Of a DNA stretch of 64,000 nucleotides, positions 31,816-42,959 are shown one piece after another. Below the pieces are notes generated by a model that saw only the letters and a program-made list of their open reading frames with translations, was not told the DNA's origin and searched no databases. Position numbers and translations under genes: made by a program. The stretch spans positions 367,178 through 431,177 of the forward strand of contig CAVTRY010000012.1 of assembly GCA_963737265.1 (NCBI GenBank), given 5' to 3'. This DNA comes from an uncultured delta proteobacterium (GTDB lineage: Bacteria > Myxococcota_A > Polyangia > Fen-1088). The stretch's first letter is position 1; each line of letters starts with the position of its first letter.

Positions 31816-33315
31816 TCATGATGCCACCTGTTCGAGGAGCAGGTCGTAGGACGCGAGATCGACCAGCGGTGCTTCGAGCGCGGGGACGCTCGGTGGATAG
31901 GTACTGTCCGTCGCCTGTGTGCATCTCTTCTTGGTTGCATCCGCCGTCAAGATGGTCCCATCGGCAAGCAGAGTCGTGAGCGCTTGCTCGACATCGGCTT
32001 CCATCGTGCTGGCGGCCAGGTGAAGAATGCGCAGGTATTCAACGTCGCCTTTGATTCCAGGCTTGGTCGCCTGGATCGCGTCGTATGCCCGCCTGAAAGT
32101 CACGCTTGGAAACAGCTCTTCTCGGTAGACGTAGCGAGAAAACGCGCCCGGCTTGCGCACCAAAGACCAGATGACGTGCCGGTAGTCGATGCGCGCGGTC
32201 TTGCCTCGCAGCCTGTCGCAGGCCAATTCCAAGTTGTCGGCGTAGTACACCTCGATTCGGTGCTCGAACACGCGGACTCTCACCCGTGCGCCGATCAGCC
32301 TCGACGGCACCGAGTAGGCGCACGACTTGACCCGGATGGTGCTCGTCGACGCCACAGGTGCCGTCATTTCTGCGTACTCCGGCAAACGCTCCACCACCAG
32401 CGGCCGCATGGCTTCGATCTCCTCGGCGACGCGCGGGCCTCGCGAAGCGTTGGCTTTGCGGACCACCTTGGCTACGAAGCGTTCGTAGTCGTCTTGGTCC
32501 GCGAAGTCGCGGCTGCCACGCACCAGCAACGCTTGTTCAAGCCGACGCTTGAGCGCGCCGTTGCTGGCCTCCACATCGCCGTTTTGTTCCTTGGCCCCGA
32601 CGGCTGTAGTTCGTGGCTCCATTCCGAGGTGCCGCATGACCGCCTTGTATTCATCGTTGAAAGTGCGATCTTCCGCATCGCGAGCGATCTGATGTGTCGC
32701 CGCCGTCGAGTGGTCGGTTTGGTGGTATCGCGGCACCCGCCCAAGCTGGAACAGCGCCGACTGGATCCCTCGCCGAAGCGCTGCCAGAGACTCCGACAGA
32801 CACGCGGTCGCCCATTGCCAGTTCGAGTACGGCAGCACCGTCACGCACAAAAGGTGCACAAATAGCTGGCCCACGATCGTCACACCAAGCTCCGCCGTCG
32901 ACGTGAAGTCGGTTTGCGCGGCTTCACCGGGCCGATGCGCCTGCGTGAACCAAATCTCACGCGCAGGACCATGCTCGGCCCGCCAGCGACGGATTCGCCG
33001 CTGCATTGTCCGAAGATGGCTCTCGTTGTACCGCCCTGGCTGCTTCGCCTCCAGCAGCTCCAGCACCGTCTGAGCCTCCAGCCCAGGCGTTTCCTCCAGC
33101 AACTTGGCCACGGCTGGCCAGTCCTCGGCGAACGCGTCAGGGCGCGTCCGCCACCACCGCGGCTGCCGTAGCTCCGACGGTAGCTTGCCCGCGGCGATGT
33201 ATCGCCGCCCTGTCTTCCGGTCCATGCCCGCCTTCATGGCGGCCTGGCCTACTTTTCCAATCTTGCTCATCTCTTCCATCAAACGCCTCACTTGGGCGTC
33301 GGTGACCGGCTTCAA
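31816..33315 (-). CDS. istA: IstA DDE transposase
   Basis: PGEAAQTDF, LPYSNW, QTDH, ENGDVE-like, YSVPSRLIG. Confidence 0.92.
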   Translation of the reverse strand: MKPVTDAQVRRLMEEMSKIGKVGQAAMKAGMDRKTGRRYIAAGKLPSELRQPRWWRTRPDAFAEDWPAVAKLLEETPGLEAQTVLELLEAKQPGRYNESHLRTMQRRIRRWRAEHGPAREIWFTQAHRPGEAAQTDFTSTAELGVTIVGQLFVHLLCVTVLPYSNWQWATACLSESLAALRRGIQSALFQLGRVPRYHQTDHSTAATHQIARDAEDRTFNDEYKAVMRHLGMEPRTTAVGAKEQNGDVEASNGALKRRLEQALLVRGSRDFADQDDYERFVAKVVRKANASRGPRVAEEIEAMRPLVVERLPEYAEMTAPVASTSTIRVKSCAYSVPSRLIGARVRVRVFEHRIEVYYADNLELACDRLRGKTARIDYRHVIWSLVRKPGAFSRYVYREELFPSVTFRRAYDAIQATKPGIKGDVEYLRILHLAASTMEADVEQALTTLLADGTILTADATKKRCTQATDSTYPPSVPALEAPLVDLASYDLLLEQVAS

Positions 33316-34052
33316 AGGTGCCTCCTGCCCGCTTGCGGGCTTGGAGGTCTACCTCACGGTCACCGTCGCGCCTCAAAGCGGGGCGACGTAGCTGTCGTCT
33401 TTGGGGAGATGTAATTGTCGCTCAGCACGTCCGCCTCTCCCGCTGCGCGGGCGAGGAAATGTGGCCGCTGCCGCGGCCGGGGGGGCGTCCCGGTTTCCGT
33501 GGTGGGACTGGACGGGGTGAGAGTGGCGAGTGCAACCGTGGCTCACCGTATGCCCGGGTGCGTCCCTGCCAAGCCAACCATGACGATCGACTCGGTGTCT
33601 CGCGCAGCGGAGGCACTGGTGCGTCGGCCTCCCCGCTGCGTGGTGGCTGCGCGAATCGAGCTCGGCTTCGCTGACCCTGAGGCCGCAGTGGTAGAGGTAC
33701 TCGGCCCTCACCGGCCGCGCTTCGCGCGTCCGCCTCTCCCGCTGCGCGGGCGAGGCAATGTGGCCGCTGCGCGGCCGGGCGGTTCGTTCCAAGTTTCCGT
33801 GGTGGGACTGGGTGGGGTGAGAGTGGCGAGTGCAACCGTGGCTCACCGTATGGCCGGGTGCGCCCCTGCCAAGCCAACCATGACGATCGACTCGGTGTCT
33901 CGCGCAGAGAAAATCCGATTACGCGTCAGCAAGGGCGACGTAGCTTCAAACATCCTGCGGCCATTCTTCCGGGGACCTGTGAAGCACGGCCGACATCTCG
34001 GCAGTCTCTCCGAGCGGAAGTGCCGCGGCAGCGCCTTGGTCGGGCCGCGTTC

Positions 34053-34158
34053 TCACGAGAAGTCTGGGATTTCCCGCGACGAGCGAACGACCGTCACAAA
34101 GTCGAGCCGGTCCTCAAGAACTCCATAGACGATTCGGTACGGACGTAGAATGAACACT
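34053..34158 (-). pseudogene. C-terminal fragment of a RelE/ParE toxin
   Basis: FILRPYRIVYGVLEDRLDFVTVVRSSREIPDFS*. Confidence 0.55.
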
Positions 34159-34161
34159 GCG

Positions 34162-34444
34162 CTAGCCTCCGATTCGCAAGACCTGTCCAGGCCCTACCGA
34201 ACTGAGAGCTGCCAGGATATCCGGAACGAGCGGGAGCAGGTCGCAAAGGCAACACACCAACCTTCTGCTGGTAGACCAGGTTGCTGTCGATCGTGATGAA
34301 GACATCAATGCCGCCTGCTGCGACGCGGAGAAGCTCGCCGTTCTTCTTTCCCGCCCATCCGGCCTCGGGTACGGTCTTCACCTCATGGTTGCGAAGGTGC
34401 TTCTTCAATCCACGAGGAAGACACTCGTCAAGCAATACGCGCAT
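34162..34444 (-). pseudogene. DUF5615 PIN-like toxin with internal deletion/frameshift
   Basis: MRVLLDECLP...GWAGKKNGELL...FITIDSNL..QQ; tail DLLPLVPDILAAL...* in another frame. Confidence 0.8.
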
Positions 34445-34652
34445 ATCGAGATACCGCTTCGCCGGCTACATCAAGCACGGCGGCGATCTGTTCCCGGCTA
34501 ACCGTCGGAAAGTCGTCCAGGAAGTCGTCAACACAATCTCCGACCTTCAGGTAGTCCATCAGCGTCTGGACGGGTACGCGGGTTCCGTCGAAGACAGGCG
34601 TTCCCGAAAGGATCTCCAGGTCGACACAAATTGAGGACTGGATCGACTTCAC
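34428..34652 (-). CDS. DUF433 antitoxin
   Basis: DLEILSGTPVFDGTRVPVQTLMDYL...FLDDFPTVSREQ. Confidence 0.88.
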   Translation of the reverse strand: MKSIQSSICVDLEILSGTPVFDGTRVPVQTLMDYLKVGDCVDDFLDDFPTVSREQIAAVLDVAGEAVSRYARIA

Positions 34653-34801
34653 GCTGCAATCATAGCGCGGTTTCTGTGTGCCGGTACTGAGAGTGGGTTT
34701 CCTGTTTCTGCGGCGGAGCGATACCTGGCGGCGCGGGCCGGGTTTCGTGGTTGGCCAGATCGCGCTGGCGGACGGCATTGCGCCACCGGGGCTGTACTCG
34801 G

Positions 34802-34873
34802 CCCTCACCGGCCGCGCTTCGCGCGTCCGCCTCTCCCGCTGCGCGGGCGAGGCAATGTGGCCGCTGCGCGGCC
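34802..34873 (+). repeat. Triple-hairpin REP-like repeat
   Basis: Same sequence as 29640-29711. Confidence 0.9.
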
Positions 34874-34894
34874 ATGTTGTGCAACAAGCAGCTT

Positions 34895-35191
34895 CTACGT
34901 CCGCGCTTCAGCATGCAGCTTGATGCCCAGAGCGCTGATGACCTTGAGAATCGTGTCGATCCCTGGGCTTCTCTCACCCGACAGGGCCTTGTAGACGCTC
35001 TCCCGGGACAAACCTGAATCTTTCGCGACCTGGCTCATCCCTCTTGCTCGAGCGATGTCGCCAATGGCCTTGGCGACCATCGACGCATCACCGTTTGATT
35101 CCTCGAGCACACATTCGAGGTAAGCCGCCATTTCTTTGGGCGTCCCCAGATGCTCCGCCACGTCATAGCGAGTGGTTTTGGTCTTTCTCAT
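34895..35191 (-). CDS. Addiction-module antidote protein (HI1420-like XRE)
   Basis: YDVAEHL...IGDIARARGMSQVAKDSGLSRESVYKALS...P..DTILKV. Confidence 0.9.
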   Translation of the reverse strand: MRKTKTTRYDVAEHLGTPKEMAAYLECVLEESNGDASMVAKAIGDIARARGMSQVAKDSGLSRESVYKALSGERSPGIDTILKVISALGIKLHAEART

Positions 35192-35200
35192 GACTTGCTC

Positions 35201-35440
35201 CTACAGATTCTTGGCCAGCCGGACCGCGGTCTTGATGTCGGCCGCTTGGCCGGATTTGTCACCGCCGATAAGTAAGATGACAATCCATTGTCCTCGTCTT
35301 GTGAAGTACACACGGTATCCAGGACCGTAGTCAATGCGCAGCTCTGATACGCCTTGTCCCACGGACTTGGAATCACCGAGATTGCCCGCTACGACACGTT
35401 CGATGCGAACGAGGACGCGCGCCCGCGCTCGCACGTCGAA
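35201..35440 (-). pseudogene. Addiction-module killer protein (HI1419-like), N-terminus replaced
   Basis: ARARVLVRIER...GNLGDSKSVGQGVSELRIDYGPGYRVYF...GGDKS; upstream 35440-35570 is a DUF4143 C-terminal piece. Confidence 0.8.
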
Positions 35441-35571
35441 AGTCTTGGATGGTGACCCCACAGATGCGATCGGTCTCGAAGGGGGTCTGGCAGATCACAG
35501 TCAGCTTGGCCGTGGGGAAGGCGCGCGCGAACCATGCGAGCTTGATGGGTGAAACTGGACCACGCTTCACC

Positions 35572-35939
35572 GAAACGGGGGCCCCAGCCGGGGGCTCGGT
35601 GAGGTAGCAACTTCTGGCGGAGTGCCGCCGAAAACGCAGATCTGGAACAGCGAGGAACGGAGAAACAGAGACAGGATGACTTTACTGGGCAAATTATCGC
35701 CGCCTGCATCGAAGTCCACCGTCACCTCGGTCCCGGGCGGCAGAGCGGTTGCTTCCTGTCCACTTGGCACAGGTCATTACCTATCTCAAGCTCCTACGAC
35801 TGCCGGTGGGCCTGCTCGTCAATTTCCACGTCCCCGTACTTCGCGAGGGTCTCCGCCGCCTCGTCAACCCAACCCGTGATCCCTCTGGTCCTCCGTTCCT
35901 CCCTGTTTTTCCCTCCGATCCCACGAGGTGAAGCCCCAG
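35572..35939 (+). mobile_element. Degenerate inverted copy (C) of the GxxExxY element
   Basis: Reverse-complement match to 38262-38840; ATG changed to CTG, large deletion at ~35737, outer TIR parts lost. Confidence 0.88.
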
Positions 35940-35940
35940 T

Positions 35941-36072
35941 GCTAAGCCAACCATGACGATCGACTCGGTGTCTCGCGCGGCGCAGGCACTTGGTGCTCGC
36001 CTTGAGATGAAGGTTGTGCCGAACCCAACGCCAGTCCGCCCGCCATCGAAGCCCAGGCGCAAAGCAGCGTAA
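35941..36072 (+). pseudogene. C-terminal half of an XRE-HTH protein
   Basis: AKPTMTIDSVSRAAQALGARLEMKVV...*; its 5' part recurs in the 300-bp repeat. Confidence 0.55.
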
Positions 36073-36167
36073 GACCTCGGCGTCCTACTTGGAATCGCGG
36101 GTGATGAGGATCTCCTCGCCCTCAGCCAGCGCCTTCTCGGCCTTGGGCCATGTTTCGCACCGGACCC

Positions 36168-37322
36168 TCACCCGACGAAAGCATCTGACCACAGCCGTTC
36201 TAGGAATTCCTGCCAGGGCAAAATGAGAATCGCGCCGACCTTTCTCGGTGTTGCCTCCTGGCAGACCAAGACCAGGTGCTTCATCATTTTTTCTTCGGCC
36301 AGCGCCTCAAGGCCCCGTAGGTCTCGTGGGGAAACGCTGCGTGTGGCCTTCACCTCTATGGCCGTGTGCTCACCAAGAATGAAGTCGACTTCGAACTGGG
36401 AGGTGCTGCGCCAGTAGTGCAGGTCCCAGCCAGGACGGCGCGTATCGATGTACGTTCTTAGTTCGTGAAATAGGAAGTGCTCAAGGGCGTCCCCGAGATC
36501 GGTCGACCTCTGCACGAGCGGAGGCAACCTGCGCAGGGTACGTGCGACACCAACATCGAACAGGTAAAACTTCGCGGTTTCGACGGCCTTGCGTTTCTTG
36601 CTTCGATTCCAGGCCGGCAGCTCATGCCCGATGAGCGTGTCTTTCAGAATCTCGAAATACTCGATGACGGTGGTACGCGGGACCTGGGCGTCGCTGGCAA
36701 CCGCGGTCTTGTTGAACATCTGACCGCTGCACGCGGCGGCCACCTCCAGAAAGCGGGCGAAGGCTGGAATGTTTCGCGTCAGCGCCTCGGCGGTGATCTC
36801 CTCTTTGAGGTAGGTGCCCACGTAGGATCGCAGGTCTTCGCTGGCATCGTCGGAAAAGTACACCGACGGCAAAAGCCCGCGGTTCAGCGCCGTCATCAGA
36901 TCGAAGCGTGGTCCCAGTTCCTTCCATGAGAAGGGATGGAGATAGCGGGATCGCGCCCGTCCGCCAAGAAGATTGACACCAGACTGGCGCAGCTTCCTGG
37001 CCGAGGATCCGGTGAGAAGAAAGCGAATTTTCCGGGTCTCGATGAGAAGTTGGATTTCGTCGAGCAGGATGGGCAGCTTCTGGATCTCGTCGACCACAAC
37101 CAGCTTGTTGCGAAAATTCTTGGCCTCGATCTCTTGCCGCATGCGCGTTGGGTCGGCGCTGAGGTCCATCCAAAGGCGATGGTCGAGCAGCTCATAGATC
37201 GGCGTGCCCTCGGGCACGGTCTCTCGGATCAGCATCGACTTTCCGGTCTGGCGAGGACCGAAGAGAAAACACGACTTGTGGGCCGTTGCCTCCATGAGAT
37301 CGAGCTGTCTCGGTATGAACAT
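36168..37322 (-). CDS. AAA+ ATP-binding protein (AAA_14 + DUF4143)
   Basis: GPRQTGKS, VVDEIQK, LTGSSARKL, TYLKEEI, KFYLFDVG, EVDF...IEVK. Confidence 0.92.
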   Translation of the reverse strand: MFIPRQLDLMEATAHKSCFLFGPRQTGKSMLIRETVPEGTPIYELLDHRLWMDLSADPTRMRQEIEAKNFRNKLVVVDEIQKLPILLDEIQLLIETRKIRFLLTGSSARKLRQSGVNLLGGRARSRYLHPFSWKELGPRFDLMTALNRGLLPSVYFSDDASEDLRSYVGTYLKEEITAEALTRNIPAFARFLEVAAACSGQMFNKTAVASDAQVPRTTVIEYFEILKDTLIGHELPAWNRSKKRKAVETAKFYLFDVGVARTLRRLPPLVQRSTDLGDALEHFLFHELRTYIDTRRPGWDLHYWRSTSQFEVDFILGEHTAIEVKATRSVSPRDLRGLEALAEEKMMKHLVLVCQEATPRKVGAILILPWQEFLERLWSDAFVG

Positions 37323-37462
37323 GTGCGCTCCCGTCGGCAGATCCGACGTTTATCATGATAATCGTCGGGTCGCCCGTCAAGGCGGCAAGGAAATTGGCAC
37401 ACCTGGCAGGGTCATCGTTCTGCGGCCCTGGATGGCTCGCCGAAGTGCTGGCGTCCACCCTC

Positions 37463-37535
37463 CCCTCACCGGCCGCGCCTCGCGCGTCCGCCTCTCCCGC
37501 TGCGCGGGCGAGGCAATGTGGCCGCTGCCGCGGCC
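37463..37535 (+). repeat. Triple-hairpin REP-like repeat
   Basis: Near-identical to 29640-29711. Confidence 0.9.
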
Positions 37536-37566
37536 GGGGCTGGGGATTTTGATGGCGATTGCAAGC

Positions 37567-37983
37567 TCAAGCTTCGGTCAGCCAGGCGAGCGCGGCTGGG
37601 CAGTCGACGATTCGAACTGGCGATTCGACGAATCCTTTGGGATCGCGGGTCACGATGGCGTCGCAACCGCAGAATTCGGCCGCGCATGCGCAGACGGCGT
37701 CCTCGAAGTCGGGCCAGCCAAGGGACAAGGCTCGCCGCAGAACCTTCTCGTCAACCGACGCCACCGCAAAGGTGCGCAAGATTCCGTCGGTCGCGCGTCG
37801 GGCGAAAGCGGCGCCCTGGGCGCGGGAAACCAAATAGAAGATGGTCGTGACTCCATGAGCTGGGATGTAGCCCCGGCCCTTGCCCCGCTCGAGGGCGGCC
37901 CACAGGCGCGCCGCGCTGGCCGCTTCGGCTCGGTCCAGAACAACGTCGAGCACGATGTTCAGGTTGAGCAGCAGTCGCTTCAC
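37567..37983 (-). CDS. PIN-domain toxin (PIN_3-like)
   Basis: LLLNLNIVLDVVLDR...DFEDAV...IVTRDPKGF; first PIN Asp appears replaced by Asn. Confidence 0.85.
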   Translation of the reverse strand: MKRLLLNLNIVLDVVLDRAEAASAARLWAALERGKGRGYIPAHGVTTIFYLVSRAQGAAFARRATDGILRTFAVASVDEKVLRRALSLGWPDFEDAVCACAAEFCGCDAIVTRDPKGFVESPVRIVDCPAALAWLTEA

Positions 37984-38210
37984 CGATATTTCCTTCGCAG
38001 GTGACGCCCGTATTCGTCGCGGGAGACACCCTTGGCCGCTCCGCGCAACATGCGCAGGACCGGGGGATCGTCCTCCCCAGAAGTGACTGGCGCGCCGACC
38101 AGGCCGAGATAGCGCTCGACCATCTGCGAAACCGAGGTGTCATGGTGAGCAGCGTAGCGTTTGGCCTGCGCGGCGACCTTCGCGTCCACGTTGAGGGTCA
38201 GCTTGGGCAT
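37980..38210 (-). CDS. DUF6364-like antitoxin
   Basis: MPKLTLNVD...AKRYAA...SVSQMVERYL...HLRRKYR. Confidence 0.85.
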   Translation of the reverse strand: MPKLTLNVDAKVAAQAKRYAAHHDTSVSQMVERYLGLVGAPVTSGEDDPPVLRMLRGAAKGVSRDEYGRHLRRKYR

Positions 38211-38257
38211 GTACGTATACTAGTTCAAGATTTGTACGTATGCCAGAGCACCTGGGG

Positions 38258-38758
38258 CTAGGGGTGCTTCCCTGAAATGGGGGCTGGGGCTTCACCTCGC
38301 CCCGCGCAGGTGGGATCGGAGGGAAAAACAGGGAGGAACGGAGGACCAGAGGGATCACGGGTTGGGTTGACGAGGCGGCGGAGACCCTCGCGAAGTACGG
38401 GGACGTGGAAATTGACGAGCAGGCCCACCGGCAGTCGTAGGAGCTTGAGATAGGTAATGACCTGTGCCAAGTGGACAGGAAGCAACTGCTCTACCGCCTT
38501 GACTTCGACGACCAAACGGCCTTCCACCATGAGGTCGAGGCGATAGCCGCAGTCAAGGTCAAGTCCTTTGTACTGCAGAGAAATCGCGACCTGACGTTGC
38601 GTGCGAAATCCACGCAGGCCTAGCTCGCGCGCCAGGCAGTGCTCGTAGGCCGACTCAAGCAGCCCGGGACCGAGGTGACGGTGGACTTCGATGCAGGCGG
38701 CGATAATTTGCCCAGTAAAGTCATGCTGTCTCTGTTTCTCCGTTCCTCCCTGTTCCAT
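38258..38758 (-). CDS. GxxExxY protein (PD-(D/E)XK nuclease-like)
   Basis: VHRHLGPGLLESAYE...YRLDLMVE...VVEVKAV...AQVITYLK...GLLVNF. Confidence 0.92.
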   Translation of the reverse strand: MEQGGTEKQRQHDFTGQIIAACIEVHRHLGPGLLESAYEHCLARELGLRGFRTQRQVAISLQYKGLDLDCGYRLDLMVEGRLVVEVKAVEQLLPVHLAQVITYLKLLRLPVGLLVNFHVPVLREGLRRLVNPTRDPSGPPFLPVFPSDPTCAGRGEAPAPISGKHP

Positions 38759-38840
38759 ATCTGCGTTTTCGGCGGCACTCCGCCAGAAGTTGCTACCTCA
38801 CCGAGCCCCCGGCTGGGGCCCCCGTTTCAGGGAGGCACCC
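38262..38840 (-). mobile_element. 579-bp TIR-bounded transposase-less element (copy A) carrying a GxxExxY gene
   Basis: TIRs GGGTGCTTCCCTGAAATGGGG / CCCCGTTTCAGGGAGGCACCC (19/21); 9-bp duplication TGGGGCTAG at 38253-38261 and 38841-38849. Confidence 0.88.
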
Positions 38841-38940
38841 TGGGGCTAGGGACCACCTCCGGGCATGGGCGTTAAGCGGTCAACCGCGTGTCCGGATGGC
38901 CATTCGTGATTTTGAGGACACAAATCTTCGAATCGGGTCG

Positions 38941-39010
38941 CTCACCGGCCGCGCTTCGCGCGTCCGCCTCTCCCACTTCGTGGGCGAGGCAATATGGCCG
39001 CTGCGCGGCC
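38941..39010 (+). repeat. Triple-hairpin repeat variant with a compensatory stem change
   Basis: CCCAC-TTC-GTGGG replaces CCCGC-TGC-GCGGG. Confidence 0.85.
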
Positions 39011-39139
39011 GGGGGGAATGGCTGGTAATTGGGTGGCTGCGCAAGGCTATGGACCGGACTGGGGGGTGCGCCGATTATCCGGCCCCGCTGACTCGCCATG
39101 TCTTGCTCCCACCCCCAGCCACCAGCTATCATTACCATT

Positions 39140-42231: not shown

Positions 42232-42444
42232 GATGACTGTATGTTTTCTCTAAAGAACGAATGGCACGACCGTCAAACGGTCTTCCCGACGAGTATGGGC
42301 AGGTAAGATACTGTTTACTTCAATAACTTTCTCGTTGTCTTGGATTTTGGCCAGCACGGGCCGGACTTCGTGATCGGCCAGATCGCGCTAGCGGCCGGCA
42401 TTATACGCGCCAGCGGGGGGCTGTGCGAGGCCCTCACCGGCCTC

Positions 42445-42959
42445 GGGTGCTTCCCTGAAATGGGGGCTGGGGCTTCACCTCGCCCCGCGCAGGTGGGATC
42501 GGAGGGAAAAACAGGGAGGAACGGAGGACCAGAGGAATCACGGGTTGGGTTGACGAGGCGGCGGAGACCCTCGCGAAGTACGGGGACGTGGAAATTGACG
42601 AGCAGGCCCACCGGCAGTCGTAGGAGCTTGAGATAGGTAATGACCTGTGCCAAGTGGACAGGAAGCAACTGCTCTACCGCCTTGACTTCGACGACCAAAC
42701 GGCCTTCCACCATGAGGTCGAGGCGATAGCCGCAGTCGAGGTCAATGCCTTTGTACTGCAGAGAAATCGCGACCTGACGTTGCGTGCGAAATCCACGCAG
42801 GCCTAGCTCGCGCGCCAGGCAGTGCTCGGAGGCCGACTCAAGCAGCCCGGGACCGAGGTGACGGTGGACTTCGATGCAGGCGGCGATAATTTGCCCAGTA
42901 AAGTCATCCTGTCTCTGTTTCTCCGTTCCTCGCTGTTCCATATCTGCGTTTTCGGCGGC
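42445..42959 (-). mobile_element. Copy B of the GxxExxY element (ORF ATG at 42941), cut off at the 42959 junction
   Basis: Collinear with copy A at offset 4183 from the first TIR base; motif reads GLLESAS (Y to S); inserted after CCCTCACCGGCCTC of a hairpin-repeat copy. Confidence 0.9.

Follow-up and report, generated by a model that had tools for sequence, protein, structure and literature searches.

A 579-bp element with a single gene, which encodes a protein of the GxxExxY family, occupies positions 38262 to 38840 of the window, that is, of the whole stretch of 64,000 nucleotides analyzed here (C12:367178-431177 of the source genome G000, a 6.55-Mb draft from an uncultured delta proteobacterium). 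The 579-bp unit is real, discrete, and recently mobile. It is very probably a non-autonomous transposon, i.e., a gene-carrying miniature inverted-repeat transposable element (MITE) or mobile insertion cassette (MIC), derived from the ends of an ISKra4-family insertion sequence (IS); it would be moved in trans by an ISKra4-type transposase made elsewhere, with the GxxExxY cassette riding as a passenger.

Anatomy and copies of the element

The element ends follow the pattern 5'-GGGTGC...GCACCC-3', and this terminal C, the 23-nt inverted repeats, and the 9-bp duplication fit the ISKra4 family (p-MULT 4). The end at 38262-38284 was also found on metagenomic ISKra4-family ISs (L160, L163, L166, and L168). 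As seen in Table 1, one open reading frame (ORF) with a family match runs through the element; it matched PF13366 with an E value of 2.4e-40 (138 bits; cut-off, 22) and the TIGR04256 model "GxxExxY" with 139.9 bits (cut-off, 35), covering model positions 2 to 115 of 116. In the profile searches, PF13366/TIGR04256 was the sole family match within the 579 bp, and no transposase was detected there. The consensus protein carries what we take to be the D...E-x-K residues (RLDL and EVK), together with the GxxExxY motif. The ORF meets no stop codon within the element; it reads out through the left end and terminates in the flanking duplication. The bounds of the inner cassette (positions 49 to 539) are those of the stretch held in common with the congeners G005 and G009, where the outer ends are absent.

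A blastn search of the whole genome identified 31 full-length copies with 93.8 to 100% identity on 11 contigs, all ending at positions 1 and 579, and 8 further partial or interrupted loci, giving 39 loci. An exact 9-bp duplication flanks 29 of the 31 full copies, and the remaining two show a 10-bp duplication and a duplication with 2 mismatches, respectively. The 30 duplicated sequences are all distinct; only two copies arranged in tandem (C17:62354-63520) have one in common, the same 9-mer being present three times. The 21-nt end was matched 73 times in the genome (up to 4 mismatches), every time inside the 579-bp family, and the reversed-pattern control gave 0 matches in G000. Contigs from a soil metagenome (X1) covered positions 38270-38839 at a depth of approximately 59 to 97, compared with 0 to 14 (mostly 2 to 3.5) in the flanks; these contigs break at 38261 and 38840 and run on into the flanks of other copies. 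Taken together, this goes well past what chance would produce. Two element copies are split by a 1.4-kb IS of the IS4 family.

These results agree with all that the initial annotation had described in the window: terminal inverted repeats, an exact 9-bp direct repeat (TGGGGCTAG on both sides), a copy starting at the same terminal base (42445) with few substitutions, a decayed inverted copy, and a transposase-less unit with GxxExxY as its only cargo. Its count of three copies is correct for the window but not for the genome. It had also proposed to look for further copies with their own duplications and for an empty allele; the former are given above, and for the latter, the orthologous intergenic site of one copy (C12:160720-161298) was unoccupied in all five congeners examined (G002, G010, G001, G008, and G004). 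For the copy in the window, the left flank is kept in G002 and G008 and the right flank is not, leaving no clean empty allele in these relatives, and the flanks of the copy at C12:150784 lie on different contigs in relatives. Two candidate empty alleles were rejected as the arrangement of a relative, namely, an X15 contig that skips 38223-39098 with 65 other letters in between and a weak X3 joint that skips 38256-38982. Contigs from RNA libraries (X15 and X16) cover parts of the element at 90 to 99% likeness, which cannot show that this copy is transcribed, as DNA carry-over is possible.

In a DNA search that covered 41 relatives, G000 alone had full-length copies. When up to 2 mismatches were allowed, the end pattern turned up in 7 of the order's 89 genomes (73 matches in G000, 4 in G009, 2 in G018, and 1 each in G011, G060, G065, and G104); its reversed control matched once in each of four other genomes and never in G000. 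The solitary ends in G018 were set aside as remnants, their neighbor genes not being transposases.

The IS4-family IS itself (ends CATAGGCATTAACCC...) lies in the element copies at C23:162554-164571 and C20:14118-16133 (L003). Its two sites are at mirror-image positions beside the two ends of the element, each with an 11-bp overlap in blast coordinates, which suggests that this IS has a preferred target near the element ends.

Cognate insertion sequences, target choice, and the probable passenger

According to the parts consulted of the description of prokaryotic Mutator-like elements by Guerillot et al. (2014; PMC3942029), these elements have inverted repeats of 18 to 39 bp ending in C and duplications of 8 to 9 bp, part of the ISKra4 group inserts 13 to 17 bp from sigma-A promoters, and the ISKra4 family and IS256 belong to the same Mutator superfamily. 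The guesses of the initial annotation at the group (IS256, IS4, or IS903) were inexact, though IS256 comes from the same superfamily.

In this genome, a relaxed end search yielded one other pair of ends with a duplication, at C20:66979-69098 (L001, 2001-4120). This C20 IS is a single-copy sequence of 2120 bp with an exact 9-bp duplication (GGAAAGCGG) and ends GGGTGCCTAACCGAAACGGGGGAC and GGGTGCCTACCTAAACCGGGGGTC, which have 17 to 20 of 24 bases in common with the element ends. Its 466-aa transposase scored 256.9 bits on NF033572 (ISKra4; cut-off, 205). A scan of metagenome contigs with the element end pattern gave 12 distinct loci (15 rows listed), four of which are complete or near-complete elements of 1999 to 2148 bp whose two ends both fit the pattern exactly. 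Their transposases are 73 to 75% identical to the C20 protein, and that of L160 scored 241.7 bits on NF033572 (same cut-off). In L163, the 96% identity to element positions 1 to 48 ends at the apex of a subterminal hairpin, CCTCGCCCCGC-GCA-GCGGGGAGAGG, which is complete in L163, L161, and L167. The congener G009 has an IS end with 21 to 22 of 24 bases in common, after which comes the start of a transposase resembling that of the C20 IS. Given these matches to ISKra4 ISs, element positions 1 to 48 and 540 to 579 are therefore ISKra4-IS ends. The autonomous ISs sharing the terminal repeat, for which the initial annotation had suggested a search, are thus represented by the metagenomic ISs with the same ends and by the related C20 IS, and they support its proposal of mobilization in trans.

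Downstream of the transposase, the C20 IS has a second ORF of 141 aa without a Pfam or NCBIfam match. A second ORF of 132 to 141 aa is conserved at this place, with homologues in L160, L161, L163, L166, and L168 (66 to 74% identity between genome and metagenome). G009 also contains a deletion-derived MITE of approximately 345 bp that keeps a piece of this ORF (55.8% identity over 43 residues; E value, 1e-12).

We then considered the insertion sites by reading the flanks of the 31 copies outward from each element junction, with TTGACA as the reference -35 box. TTG lies at outward position 17 for 8 of the left flanks and 5 of the right, and almost never elsewhere. A match of at least 4 of 6 bases to TTGACA at this position was observed in 15 of the 31 copies (11 left and 4 right), compared with 2.8% of random genomic hexamers. 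In about half of the copies, then, a -35-like box lies exactly 16 bp from an element end, a fixed distance as in part of the ISKra4 group. In the window copy, the predicted -35 box TGGCAT begins 16 bp from the left end, upstream of a 76-aa gene (37980-38210, minus strand), and the C20 IS has TCGACA at outward position 17, the same bias as the element.

The shared ends, the duplications, and the target choice point to trans-mobilization, which would proceed as follows. An ISKra4-type (prokaryotic Mutator-like, DDE) transposase supplied from elsewhere would bind the 23-nt inverted ends, cut the element out or copy it, and insert it with a 9-bp staggered cut, favoring sites 16 bp upstream of a promoter -35 box; amplification would have led to the approximately 39 loci of this one genome. 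The transposase might come from the single 2120-bp C20 IS or from a closer relative that is now lost or unassembled. The GxxExxY cassette (49-539) stands where the parent IS has its transposase and second ORF.

Within such an element, GxxExxY is most likely a passenger and presumably dispensable. As assembled, the ORF is intact over 132 codons in 13 of the 31 copies and broken in 18. The 36 variant sites comprise 22 non-synonymous and 14 synonymous substitutions (pN/pS of approximately 0.53), and the substitution density is the same in the coding part (0.091) as in the non-coding parts (0.099 and 0.085). Passenger status is further supported by the only other GxxExxY cassette of the genome, which is present once and occupies a site that other genera have as well.

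Several observations weigh against this account. No autonomous IS with ends identical to those of the element was found in this assembly by the 21-nt end search (up to 4 mismatches). The C20 IS is present once and differs at 4 to 7 of 24 end positions, so that cross-mobilization would have to be assumed. L160 and L166, the two metagenomic ISs whose flanks could be read on either side, have no matching 9-bp duplication; these contigs may be chimeric across the repeat. A second, 1782-bp IS also inserts 16 bp from -35-like boxes. The target signature therefore indicates the family, and the C20 type is indicated by the identity of the ends alone. At the sites orthologous to C12:160720-161298, a single copy of the 9-bp target was not readable, as the spacer is too diverged. 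Finally, most of the ORF breaks are 1-nt indels, and the distribution of one indel, present in 8 copies, disagrees with the substitution haplotypes; some of these indels may be assembly errors, which weakens the argument from relaxed selection. Because this shared 1-nt deletion is at odds with the haplotypes, a spread of gene-dead subfamilies was not used as an argument.

The 1782-bp IS is ISKra4-like and present at C23:408819-410600 and in about 9 more copies (L173) with 99.7 to 100% identity between them. It has ends GGGTGGGTTGCACGGG, which have 11 of 24 bases in common with the element, and 9-bp duplications; with 177.9 bits on NF033572, its 587-aa transposase falls short of the cut-off of 205.

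The GxxExxY cassette and the alternative readings

A further reading concerns the origin and role of the cargo and is compatible with trans-mobilization of the outer element. It holds that the inner cassette of 492 bp is a selfish, self-recognizing element, whose protein acts on its own phased words, and that it invaded an ISKra4-derived MITE at the hairpin and now hitch-hikes with it. We regard this as possible but rather doubtful. In its favor is the layout of GxxExxY loci elsewhere. Among 80 relatives from many phyla (45 to 88% identity), of which 78 were tested and 2 dropped as too near a contig end, an inverted repeat with a score of at least 14 brackets the gene in 46 loci, compared with 1 of 149 control windows shifted by 650 bp. 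The arms in these relatives consist of phased 7-nt words, CGCAGAG, CACAGAG, and CACGAAG among them. The gene of the 579-bp element shares this layout, with inverted arrays over the first codons and the 3' tail, its words being degenerate. The only other GxxExxY gene of the genome (C22:198389-198724; 59% identical and single-copy) has it as well, with CACAGAG arrays over the first codons and 3' tail of its cassette (C22:198320-198800; about 1020 to 1500 in L172).

The cassette also occurs in three settings. In G000, it lies within ISKra4 ends, and in G005 and G009, it has no such outer ends: inner positions 66 to 539 are present in G005 at 91% identity, and positions of approximately 57 to 536 at two G009 loci at 80 to 84%. 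In G003 and G004, it is carried without the middle of the gene (positions 44 to 125 joined to 400 to 513) by an unrelated MITE with ends GGGAACCCTGAGAGGGCACCCCTTTCAAGGTG. Moreover, the junction between IS and cassette falls at the apex of the hairpin that is complete in the autonomous relatives, and a head-to-tail junction, 539-GG-48, was found in G005 and one X3 contig. Three near-identical cassettes lie inside a larger repeated element of one Spirochaetota metagenome-assembled genome (L098, L116, and L130), which would be another case of a cassette riding in a multi-copy element.

Other observations speak against a selfish cassette. The junctions seen in G005 and X3 could stem from a single kind of organism and might be a tandem remnant. 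No precise empty sites were found for the free cassettes of G009, where synteny is broken on one side. The cassette on C22, flanked by a comM-like gene and recA in a place that is also occupied in another genus, looks inherited and decaying rather than recently mobile. At this site (relatives L174-L182), a cassette is present in G000, G005, and 5 genomes of another genus, and remnants are present in G011 (the 3' part of the gene) and G007 (the 3' array only); the site holds no recognizable cassette DNA in G001, G006, and G012 (at most 1 array word in G001). In addition, PF13366 is listed as "Unknown" in the portion consulted of PMC3424549.

Carried further, the idea becomes one of a nested parasite, in which a cassette of an undescribed, phylum-spanning class of self-recognizing selfish elements inserted at the hairpin apex of an ISKra4-derived MITE and reached approximately 39 copies through a foreign Mutator-like transposase. 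This combination seems to us somewhat less probable still; if true, some large GxxExxY paralogue families elsewhere may ride unrelated transposons.

Some further features of these cassette loci were noted. The GGGAACCCTGAGAGGGCACCCCTTTCAAGGTG-ended MITE family is approximately 370 bp long (loci L047-L061; 11 copies aligned), and many of its copies adjoin a CTCCCGCGATG motif, with no clear duplication seen. In the Spirochaetota element, flanking ORF pieces with zinc-finger CxxC motifs look like parts of a transposase. The gene of the comM-like/recA cassette is more diverged between G000 and G005 than its flanking genes. A solo inner repeat arm was observed in a conserved short locus (L012, L013, and L066, from G011, G010, and G004); a 26-aa ORF would end in this arm, with a terminus (...PFLPVLPLTDRHWG) resembling the PFLPVFP tail of the element ORF.

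A role of GxxExxY in the transposition machinery, the other alternative of the initial annotation, either as an accessory nuclease of a DDE transposase, as TnsA with TnsB in Tn7, or as the transposase itself, is improbable. The protein is encoded by the sole gene of the element, has a nuclease fold with the D...E-x-K residues and the GxxExxY motif, and could be supplied in trans by intact copies to broken ones. Against this, the autonomous ISs with the same ends lack it (0 of the 12 metagenomic loci with the element end pattern have a GxxExxY gene), and no ISKra4 transposase lies within 1.2 kb of GxxExxY at any of the 80 loci elsewhere. An ISKra4 transposase alone explains the 9-bp duplication, the end structure, and the -35 targeting, and more than half of the copies are broken as assembled. 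To our knowledge, there is no precedent for a PD-(D/E)XK protein of approximately 130 aa making 9-bp staggered integrations.

An assembly artefact or plain segmental duplication as the source of the copies, as might be feared of a 25-contig draft with 7.6% estimated contamination, can be dismissed: the 31 copies sit in 31 different flanks with 30 distinct duplicated sequences, two are themselves interrupted by the IS4-family IS, and metagenome contigs break at the element ends and lead into the flanks of other copies, and therefore the assembly duplication that the initial annotation had named as a danger is ruled out.

Surroundings in the window and known systems

The coordinates of the element, its parts, and its copies in the window are given in Table 1. 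In the surroundings of the element, positions 31816-37983 contain an island of mobile and addiction-type genes, identified by eye. It includes a 499-aa ORF like an IS21-type transposase, a 384-aa ATPase-like ORF, and several small paired ORFs like toxin-antitoxin modules, among them a PIN-like ORF of 138 aa (37567-37983). A GC-rich repeat of 70 nt (CTCACCGGCCGCGC...GGCGAGGCAATGTGGCC), widespread in the genus, is present at 34804-34873, 37465-37534, and 38941-39010 with 93 to 100% identity, and partially at 42417-42445, where copy B begins inside it.

Table 1. Coordinates of the 579-bp element, its parts, the adjacent predicted promoter, and its further copies in the window
Feature	Position	Strand	Remarks
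579-bp element	38262-38840		Transposon unit between 23-nt inverted ends, flanked by 9-bp duplication
Target-site duplication, left copy, 9 bp, TGGGGCTAG	38253..38261	.	Read in the sequence
Target-site duplication, right copy, 9 bp, TGGGGCTAG	38841..38849	.	Read in the sequence
Left terminal inverted repeat, 23 nt, GGGTGCTTCCCTGAAATGGGGGC	38262..38284	+	91% complementary to 38818-38840
IS-derived left end, element positions 1-48	38262..38309	+	96% identity over 49 nt to the L163 end
IS-derived right end, element positions 540-579 (38818-38840 form the right terminal inverted repeat)	38801..38840	+	
Inner GxxExxY cassette, element positions 49-539	38310..38800	-	Upstream region of ~45 nt, gene, and two inverted word arrays
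GxxExxY ORF, 166 aa	38258..38758	-	PD-(D/E)XK domain, residues 13-128 (38375-38722)
Inner inverted repeat, arm at gene 3' end	38327..38351	.	Encodes ...PSGPPFLPVF...; phased words, degenerate
Inner inverted repeat, arm over codons 2-10	38730..38754	.	25 nt, 92% complementary to 38327-38351
Sigma-70-like promoter, predicted from the consensus	38217..38245	-	-35 TGGCAT at 38240-38245, 17-nt spacer, -10 TAGTAT at 38217-38222
Copy B	42445..42959	+	Element positions 1-515, 98.6% identity; same left terminal base, right end missing
Copy C	35572..35924	-	Inverted; retains only positions 49-237 and 401-567, having lost both ends and an internal stretch

Literature searches for GxxExxY, for PF13366/PDDEXK_3/TIGR04256, and for ISKra4 returned no paper describing this unit; they did not cover the supplementary passenger lists of PMC3942029, so a GxxExxY passenger may be present there. 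They likewise returned no literature on GxxExxY biology, and the papers mentioning PF13366, PDDEXK_3, or TIGR04256 list its function as unknown.

Riding as the cargo of another's transposon offers one concrete route by which GxxExxY, a large orphan family, becomes multi-copy, and it cautions against reading GxxExxY copy number as evidence of own mobility. The 13 intact and 18 broken genes in near-identical elements form a natural test set. Since the insertions lie just upstream of host promoters, and the GxxExxY gene is directed at the promoter in the left-end cases, the family may alter the expression of many host genes.

This gene-carrying ISKra4-type MITE is real and recently amplified, and its closest known kind is the MIC. 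Reported MICs include MIC231 from Bacillus cereus and those of qnrS2 and qnrD. Like the element, they have IS ends, the target-site duplication typical of the family, no transposase, one passenger gene, and a presumed mobilization in trans. Unlike them, the element has ISKra4-family ends and a GxxExxY cassette instead of a resistance or metabolic gene as cargo, and with 39 loci in one genome, it has the copy number of a MITE, far above the few copies usual for MICs.

The element resembles the ISs and MITEs of the ISKra4 group (p-MULT 4; PMC3942029) in its 23-nt repeats ending in C, its 9-bp duplication, its distance of 16 bp from -35 boxes, and its cognate ISs with an NF033572 transposase. It differs from the ISs in being without a transposase, and from non-coding MITEs of the group in carrying an intact-looking gene.

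The layout of the inner cassette recalls that of REPIN/RAYT systems, in which doublets of repetitive extragenic palindromic (REP) sequences go together with an HUH (Y1) tyrosine transposase. The cassette resembles a RAYT gene in that inverted short repeats flank one small gene of nuclease type, and a gene-less remnant was seen in G007. Unlike RAYT, its protein has a PD-(D/E)XK fold and not an HUH fold, and its arms are arrays of phased words, so that the resemblance is one of layout; membership in REPIN/RAYT was rejected, the protein being PD-(D/E)XK (PF13366) with no other family match.

Finally, the Pack-MULEs of plants are non-autonomous Mutator-like elements with captured pieces of host genes. 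The element differs from them in being bacterial and in carrying one whole gene with its own flanking repeats and not fragments of host genes. Like Pack-MULEs, it belongs with the same transposase superfamily, has a 9-bp duplication, is non-autonomous, holds foreign coding DNA between Mutator-type ends, and reaches a high copy number. As a bacterial Mutator-like (ISKra4) element that serves as a gene-carrying, transposase-less vehicle at a MITE-like copy number, it thus provides a close parallel to the plant Pack-MULEs.

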